Part shown: positions 24,671-61,400 of the stretch, in pieces
How positions within the stretch are numbered: position 1 is the first letter of the stretch
How the letters are laid out: each line of letters starts with the position of its first letter
Origin: Marsupella aquatica
Lineage: Eukaryota > Plantae > Marchantiophyta
DNA: 64,000 nt
Direction of reading: 5' to 3'
Assembly (NCBI GenBank): GCA_973895155.1
Contig: OZ316891.1
Span: 9,177,875 to 9,241,874 of the forward strand
Translations under genes and position numbers: made by a program
The notes under the pieces: model-generated
What the model was told of the DNA's origin: nothing
Seen by the model: only the letters and a program-made list of their open reading frames with translations
Databases searched by the model: none

Positions 24671-24846
24671 CTTAAATCACAACTGCCCTTCAAAAGCTAC
24701 GGGTTACCTATAGTTACCATTAAAATGAGATTTTTCCTGAAATTGTGGAGCAAATTAACATACTAGAGGAGAACAATGATTGAAATGTGGAAAAAGGGAG
24801 GAGGTCTTGGACACTTCTCCTTATATAGGGCAAGTTGTGATTTAAG
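24671..24846. mobile_element. Small foldback/MITE-like element
   Basis: Inverted ends cttaaatcacaactgccc and gggcaagttgtgatttaag. Confidence 0.5.
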
Positions 24847-24869
24847 TGACACAGAGCGGCCCTTAACAA

Positions 24870-31047: not shown

Positions 31048-33760
31048 CTAGTGGTCTACATCAAGTGTCGAAACTAGATCGGCAAGTGGGACAGGAATGT
31101 CCTCTAGGGGGGCTAGCTGCTGCGGAGTCACACTAGCACCCACTATCAGAGATCGACGATAGACGGCCCGAGCTTGAGCACGCTGTAAGGTGACTGAAAT
31201 GCGTTGGTGAAAGTGCGTGGTCAAAACAGATAGCGGGGGCCCGGTGGGACCCATCCGGCCGTGAACATCCCGAGCAGCTTGGCGAAGAAGCCCGTCGAAC
31301 TAATGATGGAGACGCCCAAATATCTCAAGAGCAAGGGGCAGGAAGCTATCAAATGAAGCTCGTGCAGCATATTTGGCCTCCTTCGTTGTTGCTGCTCGTG
31401 ATGCTGCTACCCCTGCCATTGTTGCCGCTGTCCCAATGATGTCTTGGCGCAATGGGTTTGCCACCACTACATCTGCCAAAGTACGGTGACCTTCACGGAC
31501 CATGGTAAGATCCACCTGTAACCGCTGTGATGGAGGACCAGGTAACTTGAGCACCACCTCCCGCCGTGCGCAGACCAAAGAGCTAGAGAGAACCTGAGCA
31601 GTCGCATCTCTCACAGCGTCGCGAACAAAAAATGTTTTGCCGCCCAAACTGCATCGAAGAAGATGGACACCTGTGGCATCACAAGGCTTCCCACAAGTGC
31701 AGGTAGGAGGTAAACCAGCAAGAAGTGGGTGGGGCAAGCCCATACGAAGATGCATGGCTGTCGCAAACTCCGCTGAAGACATCCGCAGGTGAGGAATGAC
31801 TGGATTGGCCTGAAGCCAGCCTCCTGCGCCCTTCCCTCTGGAAGAAAGAATCCGAGCTCAGTCCGTGTCAGGTGCCTCAGTGAGGATGCTGGAGAGGGTG
31901 AAAGCGTGCATACGCCCAGCAAGGTTTGCCTGAAGACGAATGGGGTCCAAGGATAAAAACTCCTAGAATGAAGGTAACGCAGCTCGAACAGGATCGGGTA
32001 ATGATGACCGCACCGTGCGCAAATGAACCTGAAATGGGAGGGAACCCTCCTCGACCTCCATGAGAGACGAAAGTAAAAAAGGTCGATCCTCAGTAAGGAA
32101 ACGATCTGCCAACAATGAGAAGGCGGCCGCCCACGCGCCCAAGAAGGCCAAAGGTGCAAGGCGCTCAGTGGAAGTAAGCCCAAAACCACCGTGAGAAATA
32201 GGAAGACTGAGCTGTCGATGAAGCCACGGAGATGAGAGCAAAGTACCTGGCCCTAAAAGAGAGGCCAAAGTCTCACGAATGGAGACATCAAACGCTCGGA
32301 AGCTGTAGATAAAGATCCTCGGTAGGGGGATGTGTCCGAGCCAAATAGGACGCACGAGGGTGGATGCATCTCAACAACAACCCAAATGCTGCCTGAGAGT
32401 CTGCTAACTTAGGGAGCATAGGAGTAGGGGCTAAGGCAGCCTGGAGAGCTTCAGCAATGAAAGATGAGCAAAAGGAGGCGGTACCGACTGGGGAGCCAAG
32501 GACCCGAAGACTGTCGGCTGGACGTAAGAACCCAGGGGGAAGCGCAAGATCATAGGGTAACCCAGCTGGACTCCATGCACGACTCTTCACCGGCTGAACC
32601 CGTAAACCGAGGCCCAACAAATGGGTGGAAAGGGTGGCGAGGGCAGAAGTAACAGCAACAGGTGGACCAATGATGTGGGTGTCATCTGAAAGGGAGGGGA
32701 AGATACACTGGGGGTGGGCCGTGGAGGCTTCCCTTAAAGCAGTAAAATGGGCAATGGCAAAAAGAGGCCCACCCAAAGGGTCACCCTGACGTGTACCTTC
32801 TGTAGAAGAAAGAGTGGTATACACTCTTGTAGAGGTGTGATGACTATAGAAGAGGGGGGCCTCGAACCCATAGAAACAACGGACAAAGGGGATAAGGGAC
32901 TGGATGTCTGGATCCGCTGCCCTCAAAGCACAAAAAATTGTTGCCCAATAAACCGTATTGAAAGCATTGGAGACATCAGCCTGGAGGACAAGTGGAGGTC
33001 CAAGGTAGTACGAATACCCGCAATAACTGTCTCACAACCGCCAGGAACGCCCACTGCAAACTGATGTGGAGAGAGATGATCCGATAGTGCAGAGCGATAC
33101 TGCGATGAAAGTGTGCGAGACACCAGACAAAGAAAAACCTCTCCAATAGCTATGGGCCGAACACCCGGTGAAGACTTAGCCATGGCCAATAAACGAGAAG
33201 CACTCAAAAGCCGAGAGACTGGAGGAGGCAAACGGCCGACAACAATACACTGGCAAAAGGAGAAGAAAACTGGAAAACCAGACTGAGGATCCTCAGGGGG
33301 AATAAATCATGAAAATGCTCAAAGACATAGCCAGAGGGGCCACCAACCGCGCAACGCGGAGCATGGAGGAAAGCATAGGTGAAGTGGTCCCTACTAAACT
33401 GAAGATCCTCCTCAGGCTCAAAATCCTCCACGAACAAAGGGAGCTGATCATAAGGCTGCGGATGGAGATCCTGAAGGGCCGTCAAGGTGACCTCGCCAGG
33501 GGGGCTGGTGTGGTGGGAGAAAAGGCCTGGACCGCACGACGATATTCACCAGCCTGGGCTAAACGACAAGAGCGACAAAGGCGTCTATGCTCTGGAGAAT
33601 GAGAGTGGCGAGCTGGGTCAGACAAAGCACGGGTAGTAAAGGAACGGGCTCGAAGAAAGTACTCTTCCTGAAGCTGTTCCCAATCTCCCCGCAGAAAATG
33701 ATGGATACGAGAGGCAGTCTCACGGTGACCCACGCGACGTGACTAGGGAGGGTAAGAGTC
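31048..33760 (-). mobile_element. Decayed, 5'-truncated non-LTR retrotransposon with RT, CCHC knuckle and restriction-like endonuclease (CRE-like)
   Basis: Frameshifted ORF pieces: GVRPIAIGE, HQFAVGVPGGCE, GTRQGDPLGG, SLSDDTHIIG (RT); GGFGL; CTCGKPCDATGVHLLRC; VDLTM..LADVVV..KEAKY..PLALEIFG and QRISVTLQRAQA (endonuclease and C-terminus). No TSD found. Confidence 0.85.
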
Positions 33761-37719: not shown

Positions 37720-39302
37720 TTGTTTGCAATTTATTAGTAAGAGGTCTTTATAGGTGTTTTTATATATTGTAAATTACAAGTTCCTGGGTAAAGTCTTTGA
37801 GTTATCCATTGGAAGTAATAGTTCTGAATTGAATTTGATCATGTATTTGAAAGAGCATATAAGGAGCCCAGGTCCCCATCACAAAGCATTGTGGTGAGGA
37901 CAAACAGAAAAAGGGTGTGTGAAATTCTTTATTGGGCTAAATATTGTTTTACTTGGTTGAGGATGACCTTTAGAGACATTGTGATCTGGTCAACATATCT
38001 GAGAAGGCCGGTAACGGGATGTCGAGGGTTCATACTGTTCTAAATTTTCTCATGGCAGCAAACAGTGGCAGGACCTAAGCTACCATTTGAGTGTCATCTT
38101 GATCATTAGTTCAAAACCAGGGGAATTAAGAGCATATGTTAATATGTTTGTTTTTGAGTACAAGTGTCATTTCATGAGTTTAATATTGTGGGCAATCTAT
38201 GACCCAAGATGTTATTCTCATTGTATCTAACTATAACTCCTAGTTTTTAACAAATCACCAAAAAATGTTTTCAGGATTCAAGAGAACTATGATGGGAAGT
38301 GAGTGGGAAAGCCTCCAGGGTAGGTATGCTACCCAGGTCTGCTACCCACCTAGGCAAATGAACAGTGGCCAATTAGGGCAGGGCCTCTTTCACAGTAGCA
38401 ACTTTGGTTTAAGTTTGTCAAAGAGTAAGGTGGAAAATGATGCATAGAACAGGGAAGGGGTTTACAACCAATACAAGCTGCCCACCAGTCATTGAGGGTA
38501 GCAAACAGATTTCACCCAATGTAGTTTCATTGGTGCATAGCTTTGGGGCAAACTAAGACACAACGGCAATTGGGGGTTGTGGCTGCTATGGCAGTGTGGC
38601 AAGTGGATTCTGATCACAGGAAGACAACATGACAAACTTGATTACCCTGAGTTAAATCTATGTCAACTTAATGCTGTCCAAGATTAGTGGGCCACCGTAC
38701 GCTGCCCGTCCCTAAGCCCAATGCAGCCTGCCCGACCAAAGCAACGAATGTCGGTTTGTGTTCTGGCATGGATGACGGAACCTTTCCGTCCCCGTCTGTC
38801 TTTTCAAAATCTGGGTGGGAGTGCCCAGCCAACCCTGCGGTCTCCCACTCTCGTTCCCACTGTCGACCCTGCACTTCTATTTCACACACACCAAGGAGCG
38901 CACGAACATTGGGGTCGCACAAGAAAGCGCAGGAGTGCACGAACATTCCCTTTTGGTCAGATCCTTCAATCCTGACATTGCAATCTGCCTCATCTTTATA
39001 GTGAAATCATTCATACACACATAGAAGTCCGGAACCAACACATCGACATTGCCTGCTCAGGTATACTTTATGTGCTTCCGCATTTTAGGGTTGTAGTTCA
39101 TGTTCTGCATGCATTGAGTTCTGGATGCATCTTTTAGGCTTACAGTTTATGTTCTGCAACATGTTTAAACAGGACTATAGAGATTCCGACATTGACATGG
39201 ACATTTCGGATTTCCCGCAGATAATGTTGCCTCGCTCAGTGCATTTCTAGTTTGAAGTTTGCGTTTTGCCTTTTCTGTTATTCATAGGCTTGGCTCATTC
39301 CA

Positions 39303-39872
39303 ATGAGCCAACATGCATGGGAAGATCTGCAGAACCCTCGGCTTGGGAAATTCTCATTTGCAGACCTTGCTTGGAGCCCTCACGATGAGGCTATCATCCC
39401 GTGGAACCGTTTGTCAGATTTCAAGGATGGTGAGGGTAGAAGGGATCCCAAAGTTGAAACCTCTTTCCATATTAGATCTTCAAGGAAATCACCTTTAGAA
39501 AACATAGACTGGGTCAAATACAAAATATTTGGGTGTTCCTATGGGCCCCAAGAAGAAGACTCGCAGACTATAATTGTTCCTCCATTGCTAGGAACAAAAC
39601 CAAAATCAGGTGTTGGCAATATACCCCGACTACGGAAAATAGCATTCAACAATCATGCAAAGCGTGGCTGTCAATGCCACTTCACTGCCCACAGGATGAG
39701 ATCCAATCCTCATGTGTACAAAATCTCCTACAAATTCAGGTACGGACTGAATGGGGGCATTGTTATAATTAAAACCAGAAATTGTTCTATTCCAAGCATG
39801 CTAGTCTTTGTATGCTATACCGAATTGGTATGTGATGGTTTGCATTCTGCCTCGTATGCGAACCTATCTTAG
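39303..39872 (+). pseudogene. N-terminal fragment of a MULE/SWIM-type transposase-related protein (putative Zn-binding DNA-binding domain)
   Basis: FADLAW..AIIPWNRLSDFKDGE..TSFHI..GCSYGP..KRGCQCHF resembles, from memory, the N-terminus of plant SWIM-finger MULE-derived proteins (AT4G13970-like). No catalytic domain follows. Confidence 0.65.
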
Positions 39873-40020
39873 TGTCACTTGGATTGCATTGTGCGGGTTT
39901 GCGTTTTGCCTCGTATGCAAACCTCATTGTCACACTTGGATTGCTTTGTACGGGTTTGCGTTTTGCCTCGTATGCGAACCTCACTATCATGCTTGGATTG
40001 TATTGTACGGGTTTGCATTC
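39820..40020. repeat. ~57-bp tandem repeat, about 3.5 copies, inside the MULE
   Basis: ttggattg..ttgt.cgggtttgc.tt.tgcctcgtatgc.aacct is repeated. Confidence 0.85.
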
Positions 40021-41597
40021 TGTATTGCAGAGAGCATTGCAACCAAAGAGGGCAATTTGTGCATGGCAATTGGGATCCACAATTGCCCCCCCCCACGGGG
40101 ACGGAAAGGTTCCGTCATCCATGCCAGAACACAAACCGACGTTTGTTGCTTTGGTCGGGCTGGCTGCATTGGGCTTAGGGACGGGCAGCGTACGGTGGCC
40201 CACTAATCTTGGACAACATTAAATTGACGTAGATTTAACTCAAGGTAACTTGATTCACTTCTACGAGTCACACTATTTAGCATTTAATGTTGTCCTGTAG
40301 CTCAATAAACATTGACCTTTGGGGGAGTATGTGAGTTAAAGCTCCTGTGCAATGAAAAAATTCCCTAGCATCACGTTTCTGAACCCCACTTTTTTGTTTT
40401 GTTTTGGGGGAGGGAGGGGTCTTGTGTGGTAAGAGCCGCGGTACAAGCACTAGCGGGCAAAAGAGGTTTGACCCGAGGACCTGTGCCTTCCCACTCTCAC
40501 GTGCGATTGTATGTTTGGAGCATGTTCTGTGAGGACGCGTTAGCTAGCAATAAACCTATGAAGACAATACTAGGTTTGCATTCAAATATTTTTTGAAATC
40601 CTTGGTCGTTGCAGTCTTGGCCGGCCCTAAACCATGCGGTGAAAATGACGGTCAAGTTCCTTGCGCTCATAGTCTGGGTAGACTATGGTCGCAGTACACG
40701 ATGATGCCATGAACTAGATTCATGGTGTCAATAGCAGAGAATACAAGGAATACATATATTTTCTGTACAAAAATGTAAAATGGGTCTATTGGGTAAGAAA
40801 TAGACTTTGGGAGTTGGTTGGGGCAGAAAGAGCAAGATGGGGGGTTGATTAAGCATATACCCCAGGGCCGTGGTTTGCCCTACACATGAATCCCTCCTGT
40901 AGTTTTTGCTTGGTATTGATGTGGGTGGCTATGAGCCGTAACCTCTGCCAGCCTGGCCCTGAGGTTATGTAATGTTGCACCTAGTGCCTAACCAGTCTGG
41001 AATGTTATCAAATTTCAGACACATTTTTCAAATCAAGAATAGAGCAAAACTACACTCAGTGGTTACGCTGCTTAATCCATGGTCACTCAAGGGCAATGGC
41101 TCTAACCCCCTTGGACTCGTTGCCCTTGCGGATTCCACACCATAACCCCTTGGACCAGGGTTTATTGTACACATGATTGATGATATCCAAGCCTATTGGA
41201 TTTATAAGATCTTTGGCTCACAAGCATACTGTTTAAAACTCGATTAGTTTATTTTGGAATTTTCACTTTTAGGATGGGATTCAAATGGAAGTCTGGGGTA
41301 CATTTTACGGTATTGTGTTTCTCATCTTCTCACCAAACATCTAAATATGAGGGTGGGTGTACGGTATGGGTGGCTGGCTGGGAGGTCAGATTCATAACAT
41401 GCAACTGATGGAATTATCAGCTATGCTACGGCAGGGACAAATCACAGACAATGGGGCAATAAATGCGCTTTCAGGTGCCAGCTGCCCCCCTCTGCATAAT
41501 TATGCAGTCATGGGAATCCCATCCCCTGTCGTACATCACCTCTGGGGTTGGGACAGGTTAAAGAAGGCAGTGGGGCAGAGCACTGTACTGTCCAGGT

Positions 41598-41731: not shown

Positions 41732-44141
41732 CACGAGAAGAAGGATCCTGTGTGCAATCAACCAGGTTTTGCATTCCTTGATCAGAAAATCCCCCAATGA
41801 TTGCACTTATGGATAAGTGGCCCGTCCATCACTGAGCAGTCTTTACACAAATTACACAACCCTGCCCTACTTTGGTGTCCAGGTCCATAAATACATTTTA
41901 GTCTCCACTACTAAAAGGTGTGCACTTATCAGGGTATGCAATCTGATGGGATGGTGTGCTTATTAATGTGCCCACATTTCTTTGTAGAGTAAAAACTGCA
42001 CTTATTGAGGGCTTTGCTCTTATACAGCTGCCGTTTGGTGAAATGATTTGAGACCTGTTTGCGCTGAGAAAAGATGATTTGTTTTTTGCAAACTCAGTGT
42101 GAAATCAAAAGGAATGAACAGGATCATTGCAGTGTACCACTTTTTGCGCTTATGGAGCGTGCGCTTAGAGAGAGTAAACTCTTGTACAGTAGAGCTTGTT
42201 TTGGTCACGGAATACGCTGTAGAGAATACGGTTTCCTGGTAAGAACAGTCTGACGTGGGGATCGTACTCATCACGTGCGGGTAAAACGTTTCCCACTCTC
42301 TTTCTTTGTTTTTTCTCGAAAAGGGAGACCTCCTCGAAAAGGAAAGGTTTACTGCGATGACAGAACACGGGTTTCCCACTTTCGGCCTTGCTCTGAGCGG
42401 GCCAGGTCAAATTTAGGCAGAGTTCAACCCATGACTTCTTTTTCCCTTTTTTAGTTGTCTTCTTGAACGGTACAATTTTTATTCAGGGTGACTTGGAGTC
42501 TAGAGTCCAACTCAAAGCTTTTCCCCTTTTTTGGTTGGCTTTTTGAACGGTAAACTCTCATTCCAGGGCTGTCTTCTAGACTATACTTCTGGAATCACAC
42601 AAAATGCCTGCAAAAAAGAGAGTGTTTACTATATTCAAGCAAACTAGAGTGCCACTTCTTGTATAAAAGATAAGATTCCAAAACACTGCCAAAGAGCGAA
42701 AAGGTCTATACTGGGAGACAAGATCCCACAGGCAGGGAGGCTAATAAACGAGGGGAAAGTTGGAACAAAACCCAGGAAGACCAAAGGTCCAAAGAGCCAA
42801 AGTTGGTTCCTTCATGCTAACCAAAATTTGGGAACTTTTGGATTACATGAGGAAGTGATCCAAAATTCTAGACAAAACATGCACTTTGCATAAGCATCTA
42901 CGTGGGTCCACTGCTTGCCATGTAGGATCTATAGACACCACATTTGATAGGGCCCCAATTCTTGTATAGCCAACTGCAGCCATTTTCACACATATGATCC
43001 CGACATAATCTCATAGGAAGTAAAAAGAAGCAATTAGCTCTTCAATTTGCAGATAGGTAGACCCTAGGTTTGTGTGACTTTTGTTTTCCTTGTGCTGCCT
43101 GATCTTTTTGGCATCTTTTCTTGTTTCCCCTTCTTTGGGTTTTTGGCCTGTGGGATCATGTCTCCCGGTTCAGCGCCCCTGAAATATACAATTAGCCCCA
43201 ATGTCTTGTAAAGTCCTCAAAGGAAAATAAATGAGAGGTGGAATTCAATTCTTGCCTTGCCCAATAAAAACTGAGATTTATTATATTGAGGTACTTAGTC
43301 TATACAAACTGAAATTTACTCCTATTGCACCAAACACCTTAAATTTTCTGTTTCTTCATTTTTTTTAAAAGTTCTTTTGTCCGAATCTCATTGTACTCTG
43401 GAGTGTCAGTTCCACAAGACCAAATTATCTTTGCTCAACATGCTACAAGAGAATAGTGTACACTCATGAAACTATGTCAACCACTGCAAGTGGATTTGGA
43501 ATTTGGAATTTTTATTTTATTTCTTAAACAGGAAATCTATGAAACCCCATAGAAAGGGAACAGTCAGTCACAACATTTGAACTTTAAACCTATGAGTCTG
43601 TGCTCAAGTGAGTTACCACACAGCCATGTCTCTCTGGGCTTGGAATTTTGAATGAATTTCTGCATTGTTCCCATATTACAATTTTCAGGTTTCCTCCAAG
43701 TATACTTCATTGGGATGAACTGGGTGATTAAACAATCCTCAAATTTGACACAAGCCAAAGTGGAACACTATTCAACTTCAAGCCCCTTACCTGTAAGCTA
43801 GGGTTTGTTACCCTCTGGCTTACTTTCTCTTGTGTAATGCCTAGCCTTTGTTCTTTGTGTTTTATTCTCAAATACAAATTGTTTACCAGAGAAGAAGTGT
43901 AAAAATTTCCTTCCGAGAGCTATCATTGCTCTTCGAATGGGGGGTTAGGATGTCGCCATCCAAATCTCCACCTGCAGGAAATTGAGGAAGTGGATTTGTT
44001 TACCAGACACTACAAAACAGTTTAATGCAACAAAGGAGGAACAGGTCACAAGACTAAGAGAAATTTGCAACTTTCTCACACAATTGATGTGTGCGATCCT
44101 GAATAGATTGATGTCTCAAAATGATGTGTAGAGGAAGGGTG

Positions 44142-44473
44142 TGTCACACCATTTAGAGTGGTAGTAAAGTATATCGTACTATCTAGGTATAGAGGTTTTG
44201 TATGTGTGCTACATGATTACTATGTTTAGTTTGAGTTGGTGTGAGGGATAGTTATCCCCTTGTGTTGGCTCAAAGGCCTCATCTTTCAATGTTGAGCCTT
44301 TGAGCATGAGCTTGGTGGCTATGGTGTGGCTGACCAGGTTGTGTGCATGTAACGTGGATTCCTTGAAGCACAAGGTGCGTTGGGCTTGACATACATGTGT
44401 GATCGCATCGGATGGGATCGTTGTTGGATTAGCACCGATCGTTGTTCGATTTGCACTATTGAAGAAGATTACA
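44142..44473 (+). repeat. Repeat block A1 (3' part of the LTR, ending ATTACA)
   Basis: Matches 52936-53264 with 2 mismatches by eye, both CpG transitions. Confidence 0.92.
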
Positions 44474-44485
44474 TTGAAAGATGAG
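44471..44485 (+). promoter_or_regulatory. Putative self-priming primer-binding site
   Basis: ACATTGAAAGATGAG is the exact reverse complement of CTCATCTTTCAATGT at 44278-44292 inside the LTR. No TGG-starting tRNA PBS is present. Confidence 0.75.
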
Positions 44486-45130
44486 CTTCAAATTTTGATG
44501 TACGGATCGTGCAAACAGAAGTTCAATTTCGTTGAGGTTTTGTTGTTGACGATTCGTGGTATCTCGGATCGAGTTTTGTTGTTGAACGGATCGCTGGTAT
44601 CTCGATCTGTTACAAGTTGGTGTTGAGAAAGCTCGAGTGGATGCGGAGCTTTGAGTTGTTGAGTTGCGCGTTTGGAGTTGCGATTTGCATTGATCGACAT
44701 TGCAGCATTTTGGAGGACTGAATGTGCGGTCGATGATCAGAAGTTGCCGTCGATTGTTATGCGCGGATTGCTAAGAGTATTCGCTGCGGTTTTGTGAAGG
44801 CAAGTTGGTCGGACTTGTGATTGTTTGTGATTCTGGTTGGGGATGGTTCCAATCGGGTGTTGATAGTTAAAGTTGTATCTTGCGGATTTGAGATTCGTCA
44901 AGCTTAATGTTGACGGATAGTGCATTTCTTTGAAGAAAGCGACGTTGGATGTTGACGAATTGTGTCCCCTACGGCGACATAGCACACCGCGGAGAGGTGA
45001 CGGAGTGCACCGCGGAGAGGCGAGGTGCGGCGGCGACCTAGGGCACAAGGAAAACGACAAAGTGAGTGAACAATGACTTTGTCCGGGAATTGCGACGGGG
45101 TTTTCGCAGCAATAGGGTTGTGAAGGTCTT

Positions 45131-45494
45131 CCACGGAACACCGTTCCGTTGAGAGGGCATATTGGAGATTGGTTGACCACGGAACACCGTTCCATCGTGG
45201 TAGTTTTGGGAAGATTGGTCTTCCACGGAACACTATTCCGTCGTGAGTGCATATTGGAGAACGATCGGGTACAGATTACCATTTTATTGTGATAATTTTG
45301 GGAAGATTGGTTTTCCACGGAACACTGTTCCGCCAATTAGCTTGGCTATTGGTGATGGAGGGTTGCGGAACACTGTCCCGCAACTAAGCAATTGATGGAA
45401 CACCGTTCCGTCAATTGTCTTGGAGATTGGTGGTGGTGCATTACGGAACACCGTTCCGCGATTGAGTGATGAGTATCCACGGAGCACCGTTTCG
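45131..45494 (+). repeat. Array of 8 short palindromes cGGAAC-acc-GTTCCg in the retroelement leader
   Basis: Cores at 45135, 45181, 45227, 45319, 45367, 45397, 45445 and 45481. Confidence 0.88.
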
Positions 45495-45739
45495 CCAATC
45501 GGTTGATTATTGATAATGGTGAGTTGATGGTGACCATTTAGGGAAAATTGGTCATCACGGAGTCCTCTGGTGATACGGGGCAACCCGAGGGACGACGGTC
45601 TGGTTTCACTCAGAGTGGAGTGCAATTTCGGTCGACGACATTGTTAGTGGTTACAAGTGGGGTTTCAGATAGTGATTCTGACGAGGAGTTAGTAGCCAGT
45701 TCTCCTCAACATCAAGTGACTGTTCCATTGTTGTGGGAT

Positions 45740-46930
45740 ATGGAAGAGATGTATGGGGCTACAAAAGGACCGAGGAGATACTCTGGTGCAGTTGGCACGA
45801 TTGATTTGGATGATTTCATCCAAGAGTTTGATACGTGGTGTGATATGCAGACAATGCGTAATGCCACATTGTTCACACCTTTCATGGCTTGGAAAGGGTT
45901 GTTTCAGTATTTGGAGGGGCCACCCATGGATGACTACCATGAGTTTTGAAAGGCTCATTTAGTGGATATTGAGGCATGGAGACAACATTGGTCACCAAAC
46001 TATGTGTCCATCACTTATGGCACAAGTGCGGTTGCCCAACCCATTGCTACAGTTGCGGCTTCTTCTAGCAGCACTAGCCAGAGTGGCACTCCATCAGCAT
46101 CCACCGCTACTCCTACCGGTGTGATTGTGGCTGGGAGTGGAGTTGCGCCAACATTTAACCCTGTGATGAAGTTCTTTGAAGTATTGAAGCAGAACTACCA
46201 GGGTGTGAGAACCGATAAGTTGAAGCGTCTTCAGGAGTTCCAGCGCAAGACTGGAGAGAGCCTACGTGAGGCATACACTCGTATGCGAAGATTGATTACG
46301 GTCATACAAGGAGTGACAGAGGCCCAAGCGGTCCAATTTTGGTATGCAATTCTGGATAGGGAGTTGCATCGTAGAGTGAGAGATGCCACTCTATTGAGGG
46401 ATTCAGATCCCACATTGGCTATAGTTTTTGCACTTGCTGAGCGCATTGAGCTCAATATGGTGAATGAGAAGGTGGTGACTTCTGGATTTGCCAAGGAAGC
46501 ACCAAAGGTTGCATCGACGACCACACCGCAACCTACTGTACGTAAGAGCCAGAGAGAGAAGCCTACAACACGGGAATCTACTAGTCAGAGACCTGTGCCT
46601 TCTTATGCTGGACAACAATCAGGATGTTGGACTTGTGGTGGGGATCATGCACAAAGATATTGCCTAGATAATAGGGGGCAAGGAGGGGCATCTACACCTG
46701 ATCAACGACAGTGTGATCATTGTGGAGTTTCTGGACACACCAAAGATAGGTGTTTTGTACTTCATCCTGAACTACGACGGGGAGGACCACGTGCGTATGA
46801 TCAGGGAAGAGGAGGTAGAGGTGGTGGACGTGGTCGAGGCATGCCACATGCAGACAGGGAGGTGATGTTGCTCCTATCGTTACCACAGATCCTAAGGATG
46901 CAAAGATTGCTCAATTGGAGCAACAACTAG
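45740..46930 (+). pseudogene. gag: Gag with two zinc knuckles and an RGG-rich tail; one internal stop at 45947
   Basis: FQRKTGESLREAYTRM (MHR-like), CWTCGGDHAQRYC, CDHCGVSGHTKDRC, GRGGRGGGRGRG. Overlaps the pol frame at 46819-46930. Confidence 0.85.
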
Positions 46931-48351
46931 CTGCAATGGCTAGTTCTCAAGTTAGACCTACTGCTACTGATGGGGCTTCTACATCCTATGGAGCTTCAAC
47001 CTCTTATGGAGCTGATGGAGATCTTGCCACCATGGGATTTATGTGTGGCACTGCGCATGTTGATGCATCAGCAGCTTTGACTCGAGGAACAGTTAAAGTC
47101 CTTGAGCCACAAGGAGCAGTGGTAGAGTTGGATCCTCAGAGAGGTGATATTCATCGTCAAACGAAGCTTCCCCAATCATTTACATTGTTAGAGGCAGTTC
47201 AAACTACCTCTATGAATCCGGTTCGGACTAACCCAAGTGGGGGTAAGTTGGCGGATTCAAGTGATGTTGTGGCAGGGATGACAAGTACCCTGTTGGGGGC
47301 GGCCGCTACTATAGTGCGCACGCCATTATTTTCAGCTACGGATATGTTGACATTGGGAGTTAGTCCAGCAGAGGTGTTCAGATTGGCGGCCACATTATGT
47401 GAGGACACTCCAGCTGTTGCTTCACGTGCAGAAGCAACGCCCAATTCTGAAGCAGTGGAGTTGAATCCACCTATTGCCAGTAATGAAACATGGCATGCAG
47501 CAGCGGCAAGGTTGATAGATTTACCAGCGTGCCCTGCTTATGAGAGGACTAGGTTTAAACCTAGCATCATATCGTTGGATAATCGGAGTGGTATCTTCCG
47601 ATTAGTTGGGCCTTCTGGAGCAATATACGAGCCAGAGCGAGTGTTACTGGATACTGGTGCCCAGCCCTTGATGTTGGGTAAGTCTACGATAAGAGGATTG
47701 GGATTGCGTCCTGATGACTTGGAGGAGTGTCCCTTTCCCATTCAGACTTCATTGGGAGAACCTACACCCACACAACATATCACTCGACGAGCACTTGAAC
47801 TTAGGATTCAGGAGGATCATTCAAAGGATAACTCACGGATCCAGGCTCGAGCTATTTTGACTAAGGCTGAGTCATATGATGTCTTGGTGGGATGTACAGT
47901 TCTCTATCCTATGGGATTTGTTCTTGATTTTTGGAATGAATCGGTGTCGTATCGACCCGATTGGCAATCTGGAGATGCTCGATTGAGCCAATTGCCAGTG
48001 CGATTTAGTGGACTTGTTGGAGGCCCCAAATCTGCACCATTATCTTTGGCAGCATTCAATAGTTTGATTACTGGGGCTGATGATTTGATTGAGGGTAACG
48101 CACATGCAGTAGATGTCCCTACGGTGGAGGAGGCACATGAGGAACACTTCATGCATGGATTGCCCATTGATAGTGTTGTGACACCAGTATGGGGTACTGG
48201 ACAGGCCTTGCCACAAAGTGCAGCCCGATTGATACATGATGCATGGCATCATGCTTTTACACCGCAATCAAGAGCAGAGCAGTCAACTGCAAATGGACCG
48301 GTGACTCTTTCACCACTGGATACTACTCCTATTGCATGGCAATATCCACAT

Positions 48352-49290
48352 GAGGGTATTTGTTTGTTGGATTTATTTGGTGGAATTAGCACTGGATTGG
48401 CTGCCATTCTTCAAGCCGACATTCCTGTGCGCTGTTATTTGTATGTGGAGACTGATGAGACAACACGTAGAGTCTCATTACATCATGTGGCATTGTTGGT
48501 TGAACGTTACCCACAATTGTTGCTAGTGGATGTCGTTCATGGTTATCAACATGCATTGCCAGCTGATATTTCATTGGTGGGGGCGGATCATTTGGATCAC
48601 GTTGGCCCCATTGATTTGGTGATTGCGGGTTGGCCATGTCAGGGTCAATCTAGAGCTGGAGTTGGACATGGACTTCATGATCCAAGATCTGCATTGTTTT
48701 GGGACATGTTATGGGTGTTGCGTCATCTTCAGTTGCATCAGACACATTCCCCTACCTACATTTTGGAGAATGTGCCATTATTGGGTGATGATCGTCATCG
48801 ACTTGTTGCCAACGTTCATCAAGTTAAGTCTTGGATTGGACCTGCTGTGTTATTGGATGCTGCACGTGTGGGTTCTCGTGCACATCGTCCACGCTTGTGG
48901 TGGACTAATTTGTTGCCTTGTGAGGTGTTGAAGCGAGCATTTGATAGCATTCCTCGCTCAGCACCCTTGGTGGTGGATGATATTTTGGATCCAGGGCGTC
49001 GTGCACAAGGTGTGACCCAGCCTGACAGACCTCCATTGGCAGTGGTCAATGTAGTTGGTCGCCCACGTTGTGCATTACCCACTTTTGTGAGTTATTCTGC
49101 TTCATATGCATTCAGAGCAGGTGGGTCTGGACTTGTCTGGGATACAACTCTACAGCAGTTAGTGGAACTTACTACTGATGAAAGAGAGCGTGCTATGGGA
49201 TTTTTGACTGGCACCACTACGGTTGCCTCTATGTCAGAGAGTTCACGCCGCCAAGTCCTTGGTCAAGCCATGGATTTGAATTGCTTGACT
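48352..49290 (+). other. C5-cytosine DNA methyltransferase domain within Pol
   Basis: Motif I LDLFGGIS, II YVETD, III ADI, IV AGWPCQGQS (catalytic PC), V DPRSALF, VI ILENV, VII LDAA, VIII AHRPRLWW, IX ERERAMGF, X LGQAM, in canonical order with no stop inside. Confidence 0.92.
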
Positions 49291-52200
49291 TGGATTATCA
49301 GCTTGGGATTAGCTGAATAATTGCGGATGCACTCTTTTGGTGTTACTGATCGTCCGTTGGTGAGCTTGCGGTCTACTGAGACAGTAGCGACCACAGCTGG
49401 GGGCGAGCAGACAGCCCATGGACCTATGGCAGGATTGGCCAAGGCAGGACAGATTGTTGAGCAGGTTGGGACTGCTCAAATTGTTGCTAAATAGCAACCA
49501 CTAACTATCTCTTCAACCCCAAAGGAAGACATCATAGCTTTGATGGAGAGTTGGGAGCCACAAATTGGCCCTAAGTTGACAGGGGGTGAGAGACGTCGAA
49601 TGCATCAATTCTTGAAGAGTTATTGGAATTGTTTTGCATTTAGCATGAAGGATTTGGGAAAATTGAAGGGCCCTGGTATTCAGATTGAATTGGCTAGTGA
49701 TGCGCCAATCTTTCGACGACCATACCGATATAGTGATATGGAGAGGGCGTTGATTTGGAGTAGAACTCAAGATTTGTTGGAAGCTGGTTTGGTGAAGATT
49801 TCATACGGAGAGTATGCATCTGCCACAGTGATGCCAGCCAAGAAGGATGTACATGGCAATTACACGGATAGGCGAATGTGCGGTGATTGCCGGCCTATTA
49901 ATCGTCAGACAAAATCTGATCGATATGCCATGCCTACACCGGAGGAGATCTTTGATGCAGTGGGGCATGCAAGGATTTTTAGTTCGTTGGACCTCAGGGC
50001 GGGGTACCATCAGTTGCCAATTAGGCATTCTGACAGGTCCAAGACAACATTTTGGGGGATTGATTCTTATGGCAAAGATCGTTTGTATCAGTGGTTGTTC
50101 TTACCATTTGGGTTGAAGAATGCACCAGCTGAGTTCCAGAGAGTCATGGATCGAGTCCTTGCAGGTTTGGATTTTGTCAGATATTATATTGATGATATTT
50201 TGGTTTATTCTTCTACTGTGGAAGAACATCAGAGACATTTGCAGATTGTGTTTGAGAGATTGAGGGAACATGGATTGAAGCTCCATCCCGGCAAGTGTAA
50301 GTTCTTTCAAGAGAAGATTGAGTATTTGGGCCACACTATCTACCCAGGAGGATTGGGTGTGCAACAGACTAAGGTGGAGCGGGAGGTGGAGGCCATTACA
50401 TAGATTCCTCGTCCTACTGATGTGAGCAGAGTTCGTGCATTCTTGGGATTGGCGAGCTACTATAGGAGGTATGTTAAAGGATTTAGCCAGCTTGCTAAAC
50501 CTTTAACTATACTCACTAAGTTGGATCAGGAGTGGATTTGGGGAGACGACCAGGAGCATGCTTTCCAAGAATTGAAGGAAAGACTGGCGTCAACACCTAT
50601 TTTGAGAAGACCCATTTCAGGGCAACCATTTTAGCTTCACACTGATTGGAGTGGAGTAGGACTTGGAGCAGTGTTGACTCAGAAGGATGATGAGGGGAAT
50701 GAGTTTGTTGTGGCGTATGCCAGTAGATCCAACAATTCAGTAGAGGCTAAGTATAGCTCTTATGAGGGAGAGTGTTTGGCAGCAGTGTGGGCTGTGGCAC
50801 ATTTCCGTTGCTATTTGTTTGGTAATTTGTTCACCTTGATCACTGATCATCAACCTCTCAAGTGGTTAATGGAGTCTGATAAGCTTAGAGGGAAGCTTGC
50901 ACAATGGGCATTGTTGTTGCAGGAGTATGATTTTCAGGTTGTGCATAGACCTGGAAAAGTGAATTTGGATGCGGATGGGTTGAGCCGCAATCCATGTACC
51001 AGTCAAGAGGATGAGACTGGAGCCCGATGGCATGATGAGACGGATAAGGAGATGGTGCCAGGATGGCATGCGTCTGCTTTCCTTTGTTGGGTGCCAGTAT
51101 GTAGTGGATATGTAGACTCTACTTCATTGGATAGAGTAGATGATGAGTCTTCTGATATGGATGTTAGTGATGTAGTTTTTGGACAGCAAGATATTCACAA
51201 CAATGTGAGAGTGTTGGAATATTTGCGTGTTGGCTCCATTGGTGGCAATGTTGATGCTAAGGAGCGTGATAGGATTCTACAACGAGCCAAGAGATTTCGA
51301 TGTGAAGGAAACCATCTTTTGAGGATACTACGTGATGGGAAGGTGTTGGTTGTACCAAAACCGTCACAACGAGTACATTTGGTGCAACATGCGCACGAAG
51401 AGTTAGGGCACTTTGGTGTAAAGCGCACTTATAGCTTGCTGTAGACACAATATTGGTGGCGTGGTATGCACACTGATGTCCAACAATTGATAGCTAAGTG
51501 TGTGGTTTGTGATCAAGTGCGAGCATTGTTCAATGCTCCCACTCCCTAGTTGCATCCGCTACCGATCATGGGTTTGGGATATCGATAGAGTTTGGATTTT
51601 GCTGGTCCATTGCCTCTTACCCAACGTCACAATCGGTATGTTTTGGTTATGGTGGAGCACTTCTCCAAGTGGATTGAACTAGTGGCATTGCCAGATAAAG
51701 CTAGTGGAGGAGTGGCTACCACATTTTTGGATCAAGTACTCAGTCACTTTGGAGCACCAGCTGAGGTGTTGACTGACCAGGGCACGGAATTCCGTGGAGA
51801 TTTTGAGAGTTTGTGTGCGCAAGCTCTGATTGATCATCGTACTACTTCTCACGATCATCCTGAGGCAGATGGATTGGCTGAGAGAGTTGTACAAACTGTG
51901 AAGAGAGGATTGCGTAAGTATGGCTTGCAGGTTGGTCATTTGGGAGACTAGGATCTCCAACTACCTTGGTTAGCTATGGGCTACCGTTTCAGTCGACAAG
52001 CATCACTTGCATCCTTTTCACCTTATTTCTTACTCTATGGTAGAGAACCAGATTTGCCAGCGGCTATTCGTCGTGATGTTGCAACTATTGTGGATTTGGA
52101 TGATCCAGATGTTTGGGTCAAGGTTTGTTCAGACAGGGCACGAGTTTTTGAGAGAGTCATGCCCATGGCCTTTGACAACCTTGCTATTGCCCAACATCGT

Positions 52201-52491
52201 GATACTTTGCGGTATGCTACTATTCGTGGAGGAGGTTATCGCACGAGGATTAGAAGATTTCATCCTGGCGATTATGTTTATTTGCAGCAGACAGCACCAA
52301 CAACGCTTGATGTGACCGCAGGGCGGACAATCTTATGTGTGTGTGAAGTGTTGCCTTCTGGAGTCCTTATATTGGAAGGACGTGATGGTATGGTTTGGAA
52401 GGATCATGTGCGTAACTGTGCGCCATGTCATCTTCCAAACATTGATGGTACTGTGGATCCAAGCTTGGCACATGTTCGTGCTGGCTTGAAG

Positions 52492-52626
52492 TGTATGTTG
52501 TGTGGGTCTGCTCAGGGAGCAGCTACTATGTTGATTTGTGATCGGTGTTCTAGAGGATGGCACATGTCGTGTTTGACACCACCCTTGCACATGATTCCTA
52601 GTGGATCATGGTTGTGTCCTCAATGT
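52492..52626 (+). other. PHD finger (C4HC3) at the integrase C-terminus
   Basis: CMLC..MLICDRCSRGWHMSCLTPPL..IPSGSWLCPQC. Confidence 0.92.
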
Positions 52627-52796
52627 CGGTGATGCCGACTAGTTATCATTTGTGTTCTCGTGGAAGATATAGATTGCAGATAGGTGATCGATGGGGCTCA
52701 TTTGCACCCGGCCTCCTGATCTTCACACCTAAAAAGGTGTATATCAACCTTGTAGAACTCATGGCTAGCTAGAGTTAGGGGACCTCACTTCCAGCT

Positions 52797-52806
52797 AGGG
52801 GGGCGA
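52797..52806 (+). promoter_or_regulatory. Polypurine tract
   Basis: AGGGGGGCGA lies one base before the TGT that starts block B1. Confidence 0.7.
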
Positions 52807-52807
52807 T

Positions 52808-53402
52808 TGTGGGTTTTGGGCATGTATGGACATGGGTTCCATTTGTAGATCATTCTCTTAGGTTTGTGTCGTTAGATTGTGACTATGCTTGGATATGTGG
52901 GACAAGCGATGTATGTTGTGTATGCGCACGACAGTTGTCACACCATTTAGAGTGGTAGTAAAGTATATCGTACTATCTAGGTATAGAGGTTTTGTATGTG
53001 TGCTACATGATTACTATGTTTAGTTTGAGTTGGTGTGAGGGATAGTTATCCCCTTGTGTTGGCTCAAAGGCCTCATCTTTCAATGTTGAGCCTTTGAGCA
53101 TGAGCTTGGTGGCTATGGTGTGGCTGACCAGGTTGTGTGCATGTAACGTGGATTCCTTGAAGCACAAGGTGCGTTGGGCTTGACATACATGTGTGATCGC
53201 ATCGGATGGGATCGTTGTTGGATTAGCACCGATTGTTGTTCAATTTGCACTATTGAAGAAGATTATTGTGGGTTTTGGGCATGTATGGACATGGGTTCCA
53301 TTTGTAGATCATTCTCTTAGGTTTGTGTCGTTAGATTGTGACTATGCTTGGATATGTGTGACAAGCGATGTATGTTGTGTAGCGATGTGTATGCGCACGA
53401 CA
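52808..53402 (+). repeat. Right-end repeats: B1 (52808-52933), GT, A2 (52936-53264), AT, B2 (53267-53402)
   Basis: B1 and B2 differ by one substitution and a 10-bp indel (agcgatgtgt). A2 matches A1. Confidence 0.92.
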
Positions 53403-55794
53403 GGTGCAACAGCCATCGTCGATGCAACGAGAGAGAACACTGTTGCGGGGGAAGGATTTTGGCAGGACATGACCACATTGCACAACTCAAATTTATAGCA
53501 ATCAAGTAGAGGAGATCCCAACAAGAAACTGATACTTCCAGATTATGGCATAGCCATAGGGGGTCTCATAGGGGGGTCTCATAACTCAAAATATGATGGA
53601 CCTGAAAGTCCCAACGAGAAAGTGATACCTACATTATGGCATTAGGGGGTCTCAAACCTCAAAATTTGATGGCCCTTAACCTGATATTTAAGGTTCTAGG
53701 CAAGAAAACCTATGAACTGCCAAATTCACGATCCATAGCATTTTGCCAGAAAGACGGTCATATGCCATTTATATAACTAGTTGCAATGAGAAGCTAGAGT
53801 TGGGGTCGAGGTTTCGAGAATGAAGCCTCTAGACCATGACTCTAGGGCCCCACCAAAATACATGTAGATGGAAAGAAAGATGAGATATAATAAATGTCAA
53901 AATGATGCATGATTTTTGTTATCATTTCTACTAATATTCAAAGAATGGATATTCAGGCTCGTGAGCATAAGGTACCATAGAGGTAACTTATAAATTATTA
54001 TTTCTTACATAACACTATAAGAAAGCTATGGCCATTTGTTTATGGCCAAAAGACACGATCCGTAGAGAGAAGCTTTGAGACTCCCTATAATGAAGGGATA
54101 ATTGGACAAAACCTCATATATTCAGATTATGGAGGGAGAAGTTGAGCTATATAGAGTATCCAAGGGACATTAGTTGGCCTGTACTTCTCATGCTACTGTA
54201 ATATTCTATACACAAAATAGTGATGTCCCCAACGTTGGTCCGAAAGCCTGGGTTTGTGTTGCAAATATTCTTCTTTTGTCTGATTAGGTCATGGTCTAGC
54301 TGCGTCTTTCTGTCGATAAGACAAGGGAGCAGGGTTCAATAGAAGTACAGAAACGTTTGGGGTAACATTACCATTGGAGCAAACAGGAAAGTAATTCCTT
54401 GAAGTACCATACTTTTTTCTCATCAGAGGAAAAAACACGAAATATCTTTTGCTCAATGCAAAGATCTGTTGTGCTTAGACCAGCTGAGGCATAACATCGA
54501 AGGGAGTGTAGTTCTTGGTTTACTTATGCCATCTTTGATGGCACAAAGTCATCTTAACTTACTTCTAGACTTTATTGGTCCTGCTGGTAATCACACATCA
54601 AAATGTGGTAGGGTGCACTCACTGATTAGATAAAATAATCAGGTTTATTATGGTATGGAGTGATGAGGTAGACAATAGATGTAATATTTTGATGTGCAAT
54701 TACCAGGACCCCTTCATTGGGTGGCCACTTTGATTTTTCTAGCCAGAAAGTTTTCTCAGAATACTATTCCCAGTATTTTGCTATTTACCCAGCCAAAGCA
54801 TGTGCCCGTAGCCTATTTCAAAAGAAAACACTCATTTATGAGGCATTTTGCCTCACATACAGTTTTCCAGGCTGCCGTGCCTGGCATAGTATTCCTCCCC
54901 AATTTCTGAACTGCCCAAATATTTTTCCAGCCACCAGTTATGGAGAGTCACTTTTTTGTGTTGAGCACTAACTTTTTTATGGACCCCCATGGGAAGTGCT
55001 TTCCAAATTCCCAGGCTCCACATGCGATTCCATCAGCATTCTTCTTCACAAACAGGGGAGTTTATGTTTGCAGCAATACACAAACACAACCGGGTATGTT
55101 TGGCTCGAGGCCAGCAAAAATGGCTTGTAAACCATAAGAACATGCCCCTTAAAAGCAAACAACAAGGTAAAAAAACTAATGGCAAAGATAAGTAGTCAAG
55201 TTATTGAGCAAAACTGTTGGATAATTAAATTGAAACCAACTGCAAATGGTAAGGACACATTTACAGGTAATCTTTCAGTCAGAACTGTAAATAGTGTTAT
55301 CTGAGTCAGTTTAAATGTTTTGGGTAAGTACTTCCAAGCTTTGTCAGTCAATCTGGCCTTCATAGCCAAAGTCCATCCGGGCTTTAGTTTCAGAGAAGCA
55401 GGAGGCATGAAAAAACACAAGCCCTAATGTGTCATATTAACACAATGATAATTCATCTAATAAAATTTACCCCTCCGCATTCCATGATGAATAACTTAAC
55501 CAAAATGGCCAAAACTTTACTCTCAGGGTGATGGAAATGTAGCTTACCTACACCTCTAGAACATACTCAAAACTAAAGAGAATTTGTATTTATGAACATC
55601 AATTTATTACAATTCAAGTCAAATTTTGTGAAAGGTGGTCCATGATTGTGGGTTTTCAAAGACCAGCATTGTGGTCCATGGGAGCATCAGTTTGTTAGTG
55701 CCAATGTAACTGAAAGTATAATTTTATTTAGAGCCAACCTGATCATCATTGAATTCTCGCAAAATTTGTGACTTTACTCGATTAAAGGAAACAA

Positions 55795-58447: not shown

Positions 58448-61400
58448 ATGGCTGAGCAGAGTGGTAGTCGGAGTGTTCTCTTCTCCACTTTCAATCAAGA
58501 TCACAGGTGTGCTTGCGAACTCTGTTGTTTTTGCAAGGTTTCAGTCATTATCGATTTTGCCGCTGCTGGAGGATGCATAACTGCGAAGACAATGAATAAT
58601 TACTTGTCCTGGCTTGATTAGGGGTTTGGTTACTTTCGAGTTCCTCTGTTCCAGATATCTGATGATGATTCTCGTGATTACCATTTCTTTCAGCTGCTTG
58701 GCAATGTGTACGCGGGAAGGGTACAAGATCTTCAATTGTGATTCATGCACCTGCTGCTATCAACGCTGTAAGCGATCATGCTCATCTTACTCTCTATAAA
58801 AACTGATTGAGGCTTGACCTTTTTCGATAATTAATTTAATTGATTGACTGAGTTGCTCTCATTTAGTTGTGGCCCCAATGTTGATAGCACAAGGTTTAGA
58901 GTCTTTGCTTAGAGAAATTTTGGTGATTTTGGGCAGCGGACGGGGCCATAAGCATCGCGGAAATGCTGTTCAGCACCAGCATTGTTGCAGTTGTTGGCGC
59001 AGGGGAGCAGGTAATCTGAACTAGGTTCCTGAAAGCTCCTTAAATCTGAACTAAACCCTTTTCTCTCCCCAGCTGATGCCAAATTTATTAAATGGACGGC
59101 CGATGTGGTATTATTGTGCTATGTTAGAAGGCTTCTTACAGTCACTGGATGCAGCCAGCTTTATCTCCTCGAAGACTGAACGTGTATAATACTACGACGG
59201 AAGCAAGCATAGCGGAGCTCAACTTCGTCTCATCAATTCTTGCAGTACGCATGAATAGAAAGAGGTGACAATGGCTGACCTAAATTTTTCCAAATCTGAG
59301 ATGCGATCAAATATGGTGGAACACTTAGCAAGGATTTCTGACATTTCTTTTCTTGTCAGTTACTAGTTGCTTGGTTTTTGTTTGGCCCTTTATTGATTCT
59401 TCTTGTGATTGTTGCAAAGAAAGGCTCATCGTAGTTTTGGAGAGGAAGACATTCATCCACGATTTGGCTCGCCTGACAGTCCTCGAGACCATTGATACTG
59501 TCTCCAACCTGAAAGGTCCGTCCCATCGGCGAAATGATGGCCTTCATGCATGCTTATATGCTTAATGAATCCATAAACTCATGCAACATGAATTGCTTTA
59601 ACAGGCAGTTTTCCATTGTAGTATTTATTTGATGGAAGGTCAAACTTTTGATTATGAGGTCGGCGTGGTCCCTGCATTAATCGGTTTTTATTAGCTTTTA
59701 TCATTGTCTCTAGATTTTTTGACGTGACTGGAAGATTGCCTCTAGATTTAAGGGTATGAGATACTTTGGAAAAATTTATGGGAAGTCAAACAGTACAACA
59801 TTAAAACAATTGAAAGGTTACATGTTATGACACACCCAGTATAGTGGTGCCCGTCTCCAGGCAAGGCCTTCGAAAGCGTACTCTGAGGTGTCCCTGATCT
59901 CATGTTGAAACAGGTTTGTGCGCATTTTCGCCAAATCATGATAACTGCTACTTGGCTTTGCCAGCGAGTACAACCTCGGGAGCTGTACTTGTCTATGATG
60001 CCCTTGATCTCCACGCTCTCTGTCAGGTGAGGAAAGTGCTTTTGGCCATTCAAATTTTTTGTGAACGAAAGGATAGGGTTCCGTATCGTTTGGACTCATG
60101 TACGGTGCGGAAAGATCTAGAAGAGTTACACACAGAATTCAGTGCCTTGCAACCAGTAGTATGTATGTCACCTTTCTGGAATCATCTGGGGTGTGAGAGC
60201 TCACATCTTCACAATATGTTTGAGAAAGCAGATCCAGGCACATCGGGCCCCATTAGCAGCAATGGCACTCTCTGCTGACGGGTTTCTTCTTGCAACTGCA
60301 TCAGAGCAGGGAACAGTCATTCGTGTTCATGTCATCCCTCAGGCATCAAAGGTATGGCTGTGGTGATTTTGGAAGGGTCTTGACTAATGCTCTTTTGCAA
60401 CATGAGTCTTTTACACGATGTACTCCGACAACTGGTCATGTTGCTGGAGTTGCAAATCTCCTGATCAAGTGGTCCGCCAGCTTCTGGAGATATTGACACA
60501 AGAATAGGGGTCCTGTGCAGGCTTTCACCTTTCGAAGGGGCAGCTATCCAAGCGCAATCTATTCTCTTTCATTTGGTCCCCCGTCTCAATACCCACAACT
60601 ACTGGCTGCCAACAGCGCATCTGGGACAGTACATATATTCAGGCTAGACACCATGGAAAGACTGCGGTACTTGGAAATGCCTAATCCTATTGAAGTTCTG
60701 CCAGTTACTGTGCTCAGTTTAGTTTCAACGGAACAAGGGTCTCCCATGTTCTCCATAGCTTAGTCTTAAATGAGTACCCTAGTAATACTTTCAAATATAG
60801 CGAGATGGAGATGGCCCTCTTCTGATGTTGCCTGTGTAAATGAGGGGCTTAGTGTGTAGTCTGTTGGTTTGTCATCATGAAGTAGATGTTGAACAGATTT
60901 CTTTGTCGTTAATACCCAGAGAAAATTCAGCTTCCAGCTAACTGGTATACATTGATACTGTTCTCAGCAACCGCTCGGCCTCGGGTTTACTTTCAGCAGT
61001 GATCCCAGATTCCATGACTGACATGGTTGACTCAGAGCGCTGCTTTATCACGATACACAATGGGTTTCCTCCAGGGGTTAGAAGGTATGCTTTGTCAATA
61101 GTAGAGTGAAATATAAAGAGGAAGGTTGTTTTTCCCGCACATTTTGCTTCCCTACGGAGTCTTGACCAGTTGGGATCTTGCTACTGTCCTACTTCTTAAT
61201 GTGGGCTTTTTATGTGGTAACTCATAGATTGGTTACTTGTTTGTAGCTACTGCGCAATAGCAGCCCATCCTGAAGAAGTTGGAGATGATGGACAACCAAT
61301 CACACCAAGATCCAGCAATAAGTATGTTGTTTTGTTTGACGAGGGCTGGTGTAAATTTTGGACTGCTTAAAATTTTGGCTTCTTTCAGTAGATTGCTTTA

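Follow-up and report, generated by a model that had tools for sequence, protein, structure and literature searches.

Whether a land-plant retrotransposon can carry a DNA methyltransferase of its own, and how such an enzyme would be expressed and used, is the question raised by a locus of Marsupella aquatica (Marchantiophyta), on contig OZ316891.1, positions 9,177,875 to 9,241,874 of the forward strand; this whole stretch of 64,000 nucleotides is called here the window, and all coordinates refer to it. At 44142-53402, the window contains a Ty3/gypsy element with the domain order gag, aspartic protease (PR), C5-cytosine DNA methyltransferase (DNMT), reverse transcriptase (RT), RNase H (RH), integrase (IN) and PHD finger. 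A preliminary description had proposed a Gypsy element with its own non-permuted C5-methyltransferase between protease and RT, which is borne out by translation and Pfam comparison. The reading favoured here, with a probability of about 0.6, is that of a decayed copy of a streptophyte Ty3/gypsy element whose first open reading frame (ORF) would encode Gag, PR and a DNMT3-like enzyme, whose Pol would be made by readthrough, and whose enzyme would be packaged and likely methylate the new cDNA. The DNMT3-like assignment, the PHD finger, the arrangement of the ends and the self-priming signal, all found in the present analysis, lay outside the preliminary description.

The methyltransferase domain (48340-49317, forward strand like all parts of the element) is free of stops and displays its motifs in canonical order, including the catalytic PCQ and ENV, just as first described, namely DLFGG (48370), VETD (48445), PADI (48559), WPCQ (48631, with the catalytic Cys codon at 48637), ENV (48766), RPR (48886), ERAMGF (49186), and GQAMD (49261); the motif numbers used below (IV, VI) follow the customary scheme. 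The profile search proposed at the time returned PF00145 with an E-value of 1.5e-9, and the best match in the PDB is DNMT3A, both by sequence (E 1.3e-10) and by fold (Foldseek E 6.6e-16, from an AlphaFold model with a pLDDT of 66.7). By these comparisons the element enzyme is DNMT3-like and non-permuted, and its motifs predict C5 methylation dependent on S-adenosylmethionine. Identity as DRM, MET1 or CMT is ruled out by the motif order and by the lack of any BAH or chromo match in the Pfam scan, in line with what had been stated before. A retrocopy of a host DNMT3 or a passenger fragment, the latter already discounted in the preliminary description, is ruled out by the fixed position of the domain in related elements and by its identity of 36% to the element protein of Klebsormidium nitens vs. 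22% to DNMT3A. A phage origin is not indicated, i.e., viral contigs gave no relative with the window's own patterns and, with broader patterns, only phage methylases at 29-44% identity (one short segment at 62%), which were taken as the tree outgroup. In the 81 aligned rows, the catalytic Cys is retained within WPCQ in 34 and within WECQ in 21, and both locus families keep it together with the Glu-Asn of motif VI. The distant family (L079-L110) and 56 of 137 distant representatives have WECQ, not WPCQ, as their motif IV, the catalytic Cys being retained.

Translation of 46819-52635 and Pfam comparison place PR, the methyltransferase, RT, RH, integrase and PHD finger in a single frame, which contains nine stops (49318, 49492, 50401, 50632, 51442, 51547, 51586, 51949 and the terminal one at 52630). 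The PR (47560-47994) has its DTG at 47650 and matches PF13650 at E 0.0085, below the curated cut-off; RT and RH span 49561-51030 (stops 50401 and 50632), the integrase, with its H2C2 zinc finger and rve core, 51190-52290 (stops 51442, 51547, 51586 and 51949), and the C-terminal PHD finger with the terminal stop 52486-52632 (PF00628, E 3.2e-11). Upstream, gag (45740-46900; weak Retrotrans_gag match, zinc-knuckle-like motifs) lies in a different frame from PR-DNMT, with one stop (45947) and a shift at about 46790-46900, and the 5' untranslated region carries tandem repeats of about 46 nt (45125-45460). Gag, PR, RT, RH and a DDE integrase thus follow one another in Gypsy order. No chromo domain was matched in the Pfam scan of the element ORFs and the integrase ends in the PHD finger, which sets the element apart from chromoviruses (Tcn1); likewise, no tyrosine recombinase was matched in the seven element ORFs scanned and an rve integrase is present, which separates it from DIRS/Ngaro elements. 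Two in-frame stops, TAA 49318 and TAG 49492, separate DNMT from RT, and six further premature stops break RT-RH-IN. With eight premature stops and a frameshift overall, the copy is dead.

The stop at 49492 is of a different nature from the others. Among 80 metagenome loci, the start of RT could be placed in 61 (34 near-family, 4 intermediate and 23 distant-family), and an in-frame stop followed by CAR-YY occurs 20-27 codons upstream of RT in the window, in all four intermediate loci and in 30 of the 34 near-family loci, the near-family set being largely one Sphagnum-like family from a few samples. Of the other four near-family loci, two have the stop but a changed codon after it, and two carry a frameshift; as background, the same context follows only 2 of 385 premature stops. 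In the window it reads TAG CAA CCA (49492-49500), the predicted readthrough signal and end of the Gag-PR-DNMT ORF, and one locus (L072) has exactly one stop, TAG CAG TTA, separating in-frame ORFs of 1369 and 1047 codons. The two closest proteins (P0001 and P0268) terminate exactly at the residue of TAG 49492, and most close protein matches end 58-145 residues past DNMT; taken with the conserved stop context, this suggests Gag-PR-DNMT as the major product, with Pol reached via readthrough. The other stop, TAA 49318, is attributed to decay because relatives have a sense codon there (P0001 has a residue) and other copies show repeated mutation of the site. DNMT is the C-terminal domain of a Gag-PR-DNMT ORF whose terminating stop is conserved and probably leaky, and production of Pol by readthrough of the UAG is strongly suggested. 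UAG-CARYYA is described as the type I readthrough motif of plant viruses in tobamoviruses (PMC5382211); the likeness lies in a UAG that stands before CAR-YYA and upstream of a polymerase domain, whereas the junction here is that between gag and pol of a retrotransposon, after PR and DNMT, with one family reading CAA-CCC. Of the claim that DNMT belongs to a polyprotein with PR, RT, RH and IN, the shared frame therefore stands while the single continuous ORF with RT does not, given the conserved stop.

Selection was approached through median dN/dS values (Nei-Gojobori), which are supportive rather than exact considering that pS is near saturation (about 0.67) and that loci were selected on DNMT motifs. 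Between the window and the near family, dN/dS is 0.16 for DNMT (33 pairs), 0.10 for RT (19 pairs), 0.18 for PR (14 unsaturated of 23 pairs) and 0.31 for the PR-DNMT linker (25 of 29 pairs). Within families, the values are 0.56 and 0.33 for DNMT and 0.49 and 0.39 for RT; as RT behaves alike, those of DNMT reflect decay after insertion. As far as these estimates go, DNMT is under purifying selection. Sister copies carry the domain, too, which, with the selection on it, speaks for the preliminary description on both points.

Named relatives of the domain, with up to 72% identity, are found in Calypogeia, Marchantia polymorpha, M. paleacea, Riccia and Sphagnum, and more distant ones in Closterium, K. 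nitens, Mesostigma and Chromochloris; the K. nitens protein (GAQ93235.1) has PR then DNMT and matches over the domain with E 1e-56. Altogether, 222 of the representatives at 50% identity reach E <= 1e-30. In four sequencing runs containing the family, contig depth over DNMT, summed and hence no copy number, is about that over RT and far above the flanks (40,000-67,000 vs. 59 in X1), which makes DNMT a feature of the family. In the FastTree phylogeny of DNMT, the window falls in a nine-row clade (support 100) with proteins of Calypogeia, Marchantia and Sphagnum. In the midpoint-rooted RT-RH tree (FastTree), elements with DNMT before RT (17 rows) are apart from those with DNMT between RH and IN (21 rows). 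This second architecture, RT-RH-DNMT-IN-PHD, is that of P0040-P0062 and of many proteins in P0364-P0500; no other is as common among the distant relatives, and 30 of 137 new representatives have it complete. A protein of Chromochloris zofingiensis also has this order, which suggests that chlorophytes have Gypsy-DNMT elements with the domain placed elsewhere. One protein (P0156), assigned to a Candidatus Obscuribacterales metagenome-assembled genome, is 50% identical to the element DNMT and likely reflects plant DNA in the bin.

The ends of the element are as unusual as its coding region. Between two copies of the 4-bp target-site duplication (TSD) GGTG (44138-44141 and 53403-53406), i.e., GGTG|TGTC...GACA|GGTG, the element is arranged as A-internal-B-A-B: repeat A1 (44142-44471, 330 bp, starting TGTCA), the internal region, repeat B1 (52806-52933, ending GACA), repeat A2 (52936-53265) and repeat B2 (53265-53402, ending in the GACA of the right end). 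The TG...CA termini and a duplication within 4-6 bp are those of Ty3/gypsy elements, whereas the two full long terminal repeats (LTRs) expected to flank the internal region are replaced by A-int-B-A-B. Despite the dead coding region, the two A repeats are identical except at 2 of 330 bases, which probably points to mobilisation in trans from a parent copy that was itself defective or to homogenisation of the repeats. The full arrangement recurs in L063/L067 (one insertion), L079, L081, L083 and L099, nearly completely in L096, and the 3' B-A-B is present in L039, L046, L090 and L092/L094; exact 4-bp TSDs flank six of nine distinct insertions, one has a mismatch and two right ends are unresolved. 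A one-off rearrangement or mis-assembly is ruled out by the like layout with TSDs in two other families. Seven loci have single-B ends, A-int-B (L037, with an exact TSD, L049, L053, L059, L062, L080 and L110), which could result from cutting at both sites, 1-LTR circles, recombination between B repeats or assembly collapse. The B1|A2 joint (52930-52939, GACA-GT-TGTC) is a palindrome of both integration termini around a 2-nt spacer; across 15 joints, after three pattern matches outside joints were dropped, the spacer of GACA-NN-TGTC is GC in 6, AC in 4, GT in 3, AT in 1 and TC in 1, a spread that fits erosion of a GACAGCTGTC palindrome by deamination. The A|B joint with the start of B (53260-53290) is common to far more contigs than the adjoining repeat, suggesting strong conservation across subfamilies. 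The whole contig of L072 reads internal-PPT-B-GT-A-PBS-5'UTR (polypurine tract, PPT; primer-binding site, PBS; untranslated region, UTR) with similar ends, and is either a 1-LTR circle or an assembly in which the repeats collapsed.

What these repeats represent is indicated by the replication signals around them. A PPT-like run (52795-52805) directly precedes B1, and a G-rich tract adjoins B1 in every family examined. The PBS (44471-44485) follows A1 and is not tRNA-like, no TGG being present after A in any family examined; it is the perfect complement of 44278-44292, the predicted self-primer and transcription start region within A1, where 0 of 1500 control positions reach 15 nt. PBS and A pair perfectly over 15 nt in both the window and L079, over about 15 nt in L072 and over 12 nt in L108, each of these four diverged families using a different sequence, and in none of three tests did any of 1500 control positions pair equally well. 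Three of the four families have a TATA box about 31 nt upstream of the pairing site, and the predicted fold of the 5' RNA includes the pairing with a z of -3.5 for fold boundaries chosen by the analyst. Self-priming as in Tf1, from a predicted start inside A1, is accordingly put forward with high confidence. Tf1 pairs 11 nt (PMC7175516), and the likeness to Tf1/Sushi and plant Tcn1 (PMC7175516, PMC6317226) is a PBS that pairs with the 5' end of the RNA itself and not with a tRNA; unlike them, the present element has a split, permuted LTR, an integrase ending in a PHD finger, and a DNMT. Because a PPT precedes B and a self-priming PBS follows A, B-NN-A is taken as the true LTR, B+A, likely integrated in a permuted form.

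From these elements a life cycle can be proposed. The first ORF would yield Gag-protease-DNMT3-like methyltransferase, with RT-RH-integrase-PHD made through the leaky UAG; the DNMT would enter the particle in amounts like those of Gag, and the new cDNA would likely be methylated. The RNA would start inside A1 (about 44280) and prime itself at the PBS, and ordinary strand transfers would produce a linear cDNA, [B-A]-int-[B-A], whose ends would be joined before a staggered integrase cut at the internal palindrome gave an insertion as A-int-B-A-B. The A2|B2 joint corresponds, within about 1 nt, to the head-to-tail join of the predicted cDNA ends, and this route of end joining, palindrome cutting and permuted insertion is judged slightly favoured. 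Foamy virus integrase cuts palindromic LTR-LTR junctions (PMC1180852), which is alike in that integrase acts on a palindromic end-to-end junction of 2-LTR circles, but the palindrome here is a fixed internal part of the LTR whose use would have to be supposed. More tentatively, these may be members of an ancient green-plant Gypsy lineage, abundant in liverworts and peat mosses, with DNMT at Gag stoichiometry and a DDE integrase, normally inserting via a circular intermediate by the palindrome cut, and not from the ends of linear cDNA, and arriving already methylated.

Several observations weigh against this scheme and give room to other explanations. The layout with a stop is not universal, since a stop between DNMT and RT is found in 0 of 23 distant-family loci, where DNMT is continuous into RT; the near-family context reads CAA-CCC and not CAR-YYA, and TAA replaces TAG in 8 of 30 near-family copies. 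One continuous PR-DNMT-RT-RH-IN polyprotein, with both stops after DNMT due to decay, would agree with the single frame, with the continuity in L079-L110 and some Closterium proteins and with the placement of the Klebsormidium DNMT in the Pol ORF (PMC5890265); it is nonetheless contradicted for the window's clade, in which the stop at 49492 keeps both its position and its context and marks the end of the closest proteins, and is very improbable. On the replication side, only 10 of 23 copies still pair over at least 10 nt at the expected place, and a TATA box is not clear in the window. If a simple circle were cut at two equivalent sites, A-B-A-int-B would be expected as well, yet B precedes none of 23 left ends (3-4 of them too close to the contig end to judge), and small indels cluster in a simple repeat 7-18 nt upstream of the A2|B2 joint with none at the joint itself, arguing against sloppy end-joining. 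These last features, the single orientation (0 of 23 reversed) and the precise joint, would be explained if the ends replicated as in DIRS/Ngaro elements, the RNA running into B2 and the internal B-A joint templating the ends, with no permuted LTR product involved; the repeat order is indeed that of DIRS-type elements (PMC5890265). This is rendered unlikely by the PPT directly before B1 and the self-priming PBS directly after A1, which mark B-A as an ordinary LTR, so that B2 would not be copied from RNA, as well as by the encoded DDE integrase, the 4-bp TSDs and the lack of a tyrosine recombinase match. As for the deep history, the DNMT tree places all 50 element DNMTs apart from 4 phage enzymes (support 100) while leaving deep nodes open and containing no host DNMT3.

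The role of the enzyme can be weighed in the same manner. That it is active and methylates cDNA inside the particle is about an even bet. Methylation of cDNA by a retrotransposon DNMT was already proposed (PMC5890265); in the same source, the Klebsormidium Gypsy DNMT was inactive in yeast, a result its authors call inconclusive and which counts against activity, as does the CpG observed/expected ratio of the element coding regions (0.43-0.66 vs. 0.54 for the window), which reveals no greater depletion. CpG/CHG depletion was consequently dropped as a signature of self-methylation, being no different from the window background. The enzyme might instead act on the host genome or the integrated copy, by self-silencing or PHD-guided marking of insertion sites: a PHD finger ends the integrase, insertion-site chromatin effects and a host-beneficial slowing of transposition are among the options listed (PMC5890265), and host DNMT3 of a moss performs de novo CHH methylation (PMC10952607). 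With a Gag-PR fusion that would carry the enzyme into the particle and a conserved stop that separates DNMT from PHD, such a target appears improbable. Retention of the domain as a catalytically minor nucleic-acid-binding or structural module is less probable again; the inactivity in yeast (PMC5890265), the WECQ variant of the distant representatives and the within-family dN/dS of DNMT would suit it, whereas both locus families retain the catalytic Cys and motif VI Glu-Asn and RT gives similar within-family values, as expected from decay after insertion. Packaging with Gag and action on new cDNA remains the preferred interpretation.

With respect to known systems, algal precedents mentioned in the preliminary description do exist, foremost KnitGypsy-Dnmt3 of K. 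nitens (de Mendoza 2018, PMC5890265), for which the paper gives DIRS-like repeats, a DNMT placed in Pol with a Ka/Ks below 0.2, and an enzyme inactive in yeast. The present element shares with it the Gypsy domain set, an intronless, non-permuted DNMT3-related domain in the coding region with catalytic residues retained, the DIRS-like A-coding-B-A-B order and purifying selection, and by these characters it belongs with the KnitGypsy-Dnmt3 group. It differs by its land-plant host and by a DNMT that ends the Gag-PR ORF before a leaky-type stop, where the paper has an ORF shared with RT; that sharing is lacking in the window's clade, with its conserved in-frame stop, while the distant family is continuous. 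The accessible text of that article says nothing of self-priming, a PPT, a palindromic joint or 4-bp TSDs, and its main text does not name Marchantia. SymbioDIRS-Dnmt3 and SymbioLINE-Dnmt (PMC5890265) as well as EpiLTRs and DAM-LTRs (bioRxiv 10.64898/2026.05.21.726589) are likewise retrotransposon-borne methyltransferases, but in other element classes (tyrosine recombinase, LINE, chromovirus) and of other DNMT/DAM clades; SymbioDIRS enzymes methylate CG de novo in yeast (PMC5890265). In the accessible text of PMC12344493 and of bioRxiv 10.64898/2026.05.21.726589, streptophytes are cited only via the 2018 work, and that of PMC6317226, PMC10952607, PMC11982613 and bioRxiv 10.1101/2021.11.30.470311 holds no report of the element. 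No paper was found that reports copies of this lineage in land plants, or readthrough or self-priming in it, although subscription journals, Repbase and bioRxiv supplements, which lay outside the search, may hold one. A DNMT within a Gypsy element is already a published idea; the novelty lies in the range extending to land plants, the placement on the Gag side with predicted readthrough, and the mechanistic reading of the split repeats.

Elsewhere in the window, a multi-exon ABCB (MDR-type) transporter gene (17048-8849, reverse strand) flanks the element, with per-exon identity of 82-98% to Calypogeia fissa CAM6125754.1, which places the host among leafy liverworts close to Calypogeia. A reverse transcriptase fragment (32288-33028, reverse strand; PF00078, E 1.9e-7) in an A-rich, strand-biased region is probably a LINE remnant, and a stretch of 1.3 kb that contains 57-nt repeats and is bounded by 154-nt terminal inverted repeats (95%; 38642-40248) resembles a non-autonomous DNA transposon. 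The window further contains a 67-nt inverted repeat pair (85%), 1.7 kb apart (23303-25132), and an exon fragment of a PROPPIN (ATG18-like; 59898-60275, forward strand; PF21032, E 2.2e-8).

For genome annotation, LTR finders expecting two full LTRs would likely miss or mis-annotate such elements, and gene predictors list the first ORF as host "DNA methyltransferase" genes, which can inflate DNMT counts in bryophytes. For the biology of the family, each particle is predicted from the readthrough layout to contain many molecules of the enzyme, and the anatomy of PPT, PBS and palindrome offers a concrete and testable route to DIRS-like split repeats in an element with an integrase. Methyltransferase-bearing retrotransposons are extended from algae to land plants, including the model Marchantia, in which what the element gains from a DNMT of its own is open to genetic testing.

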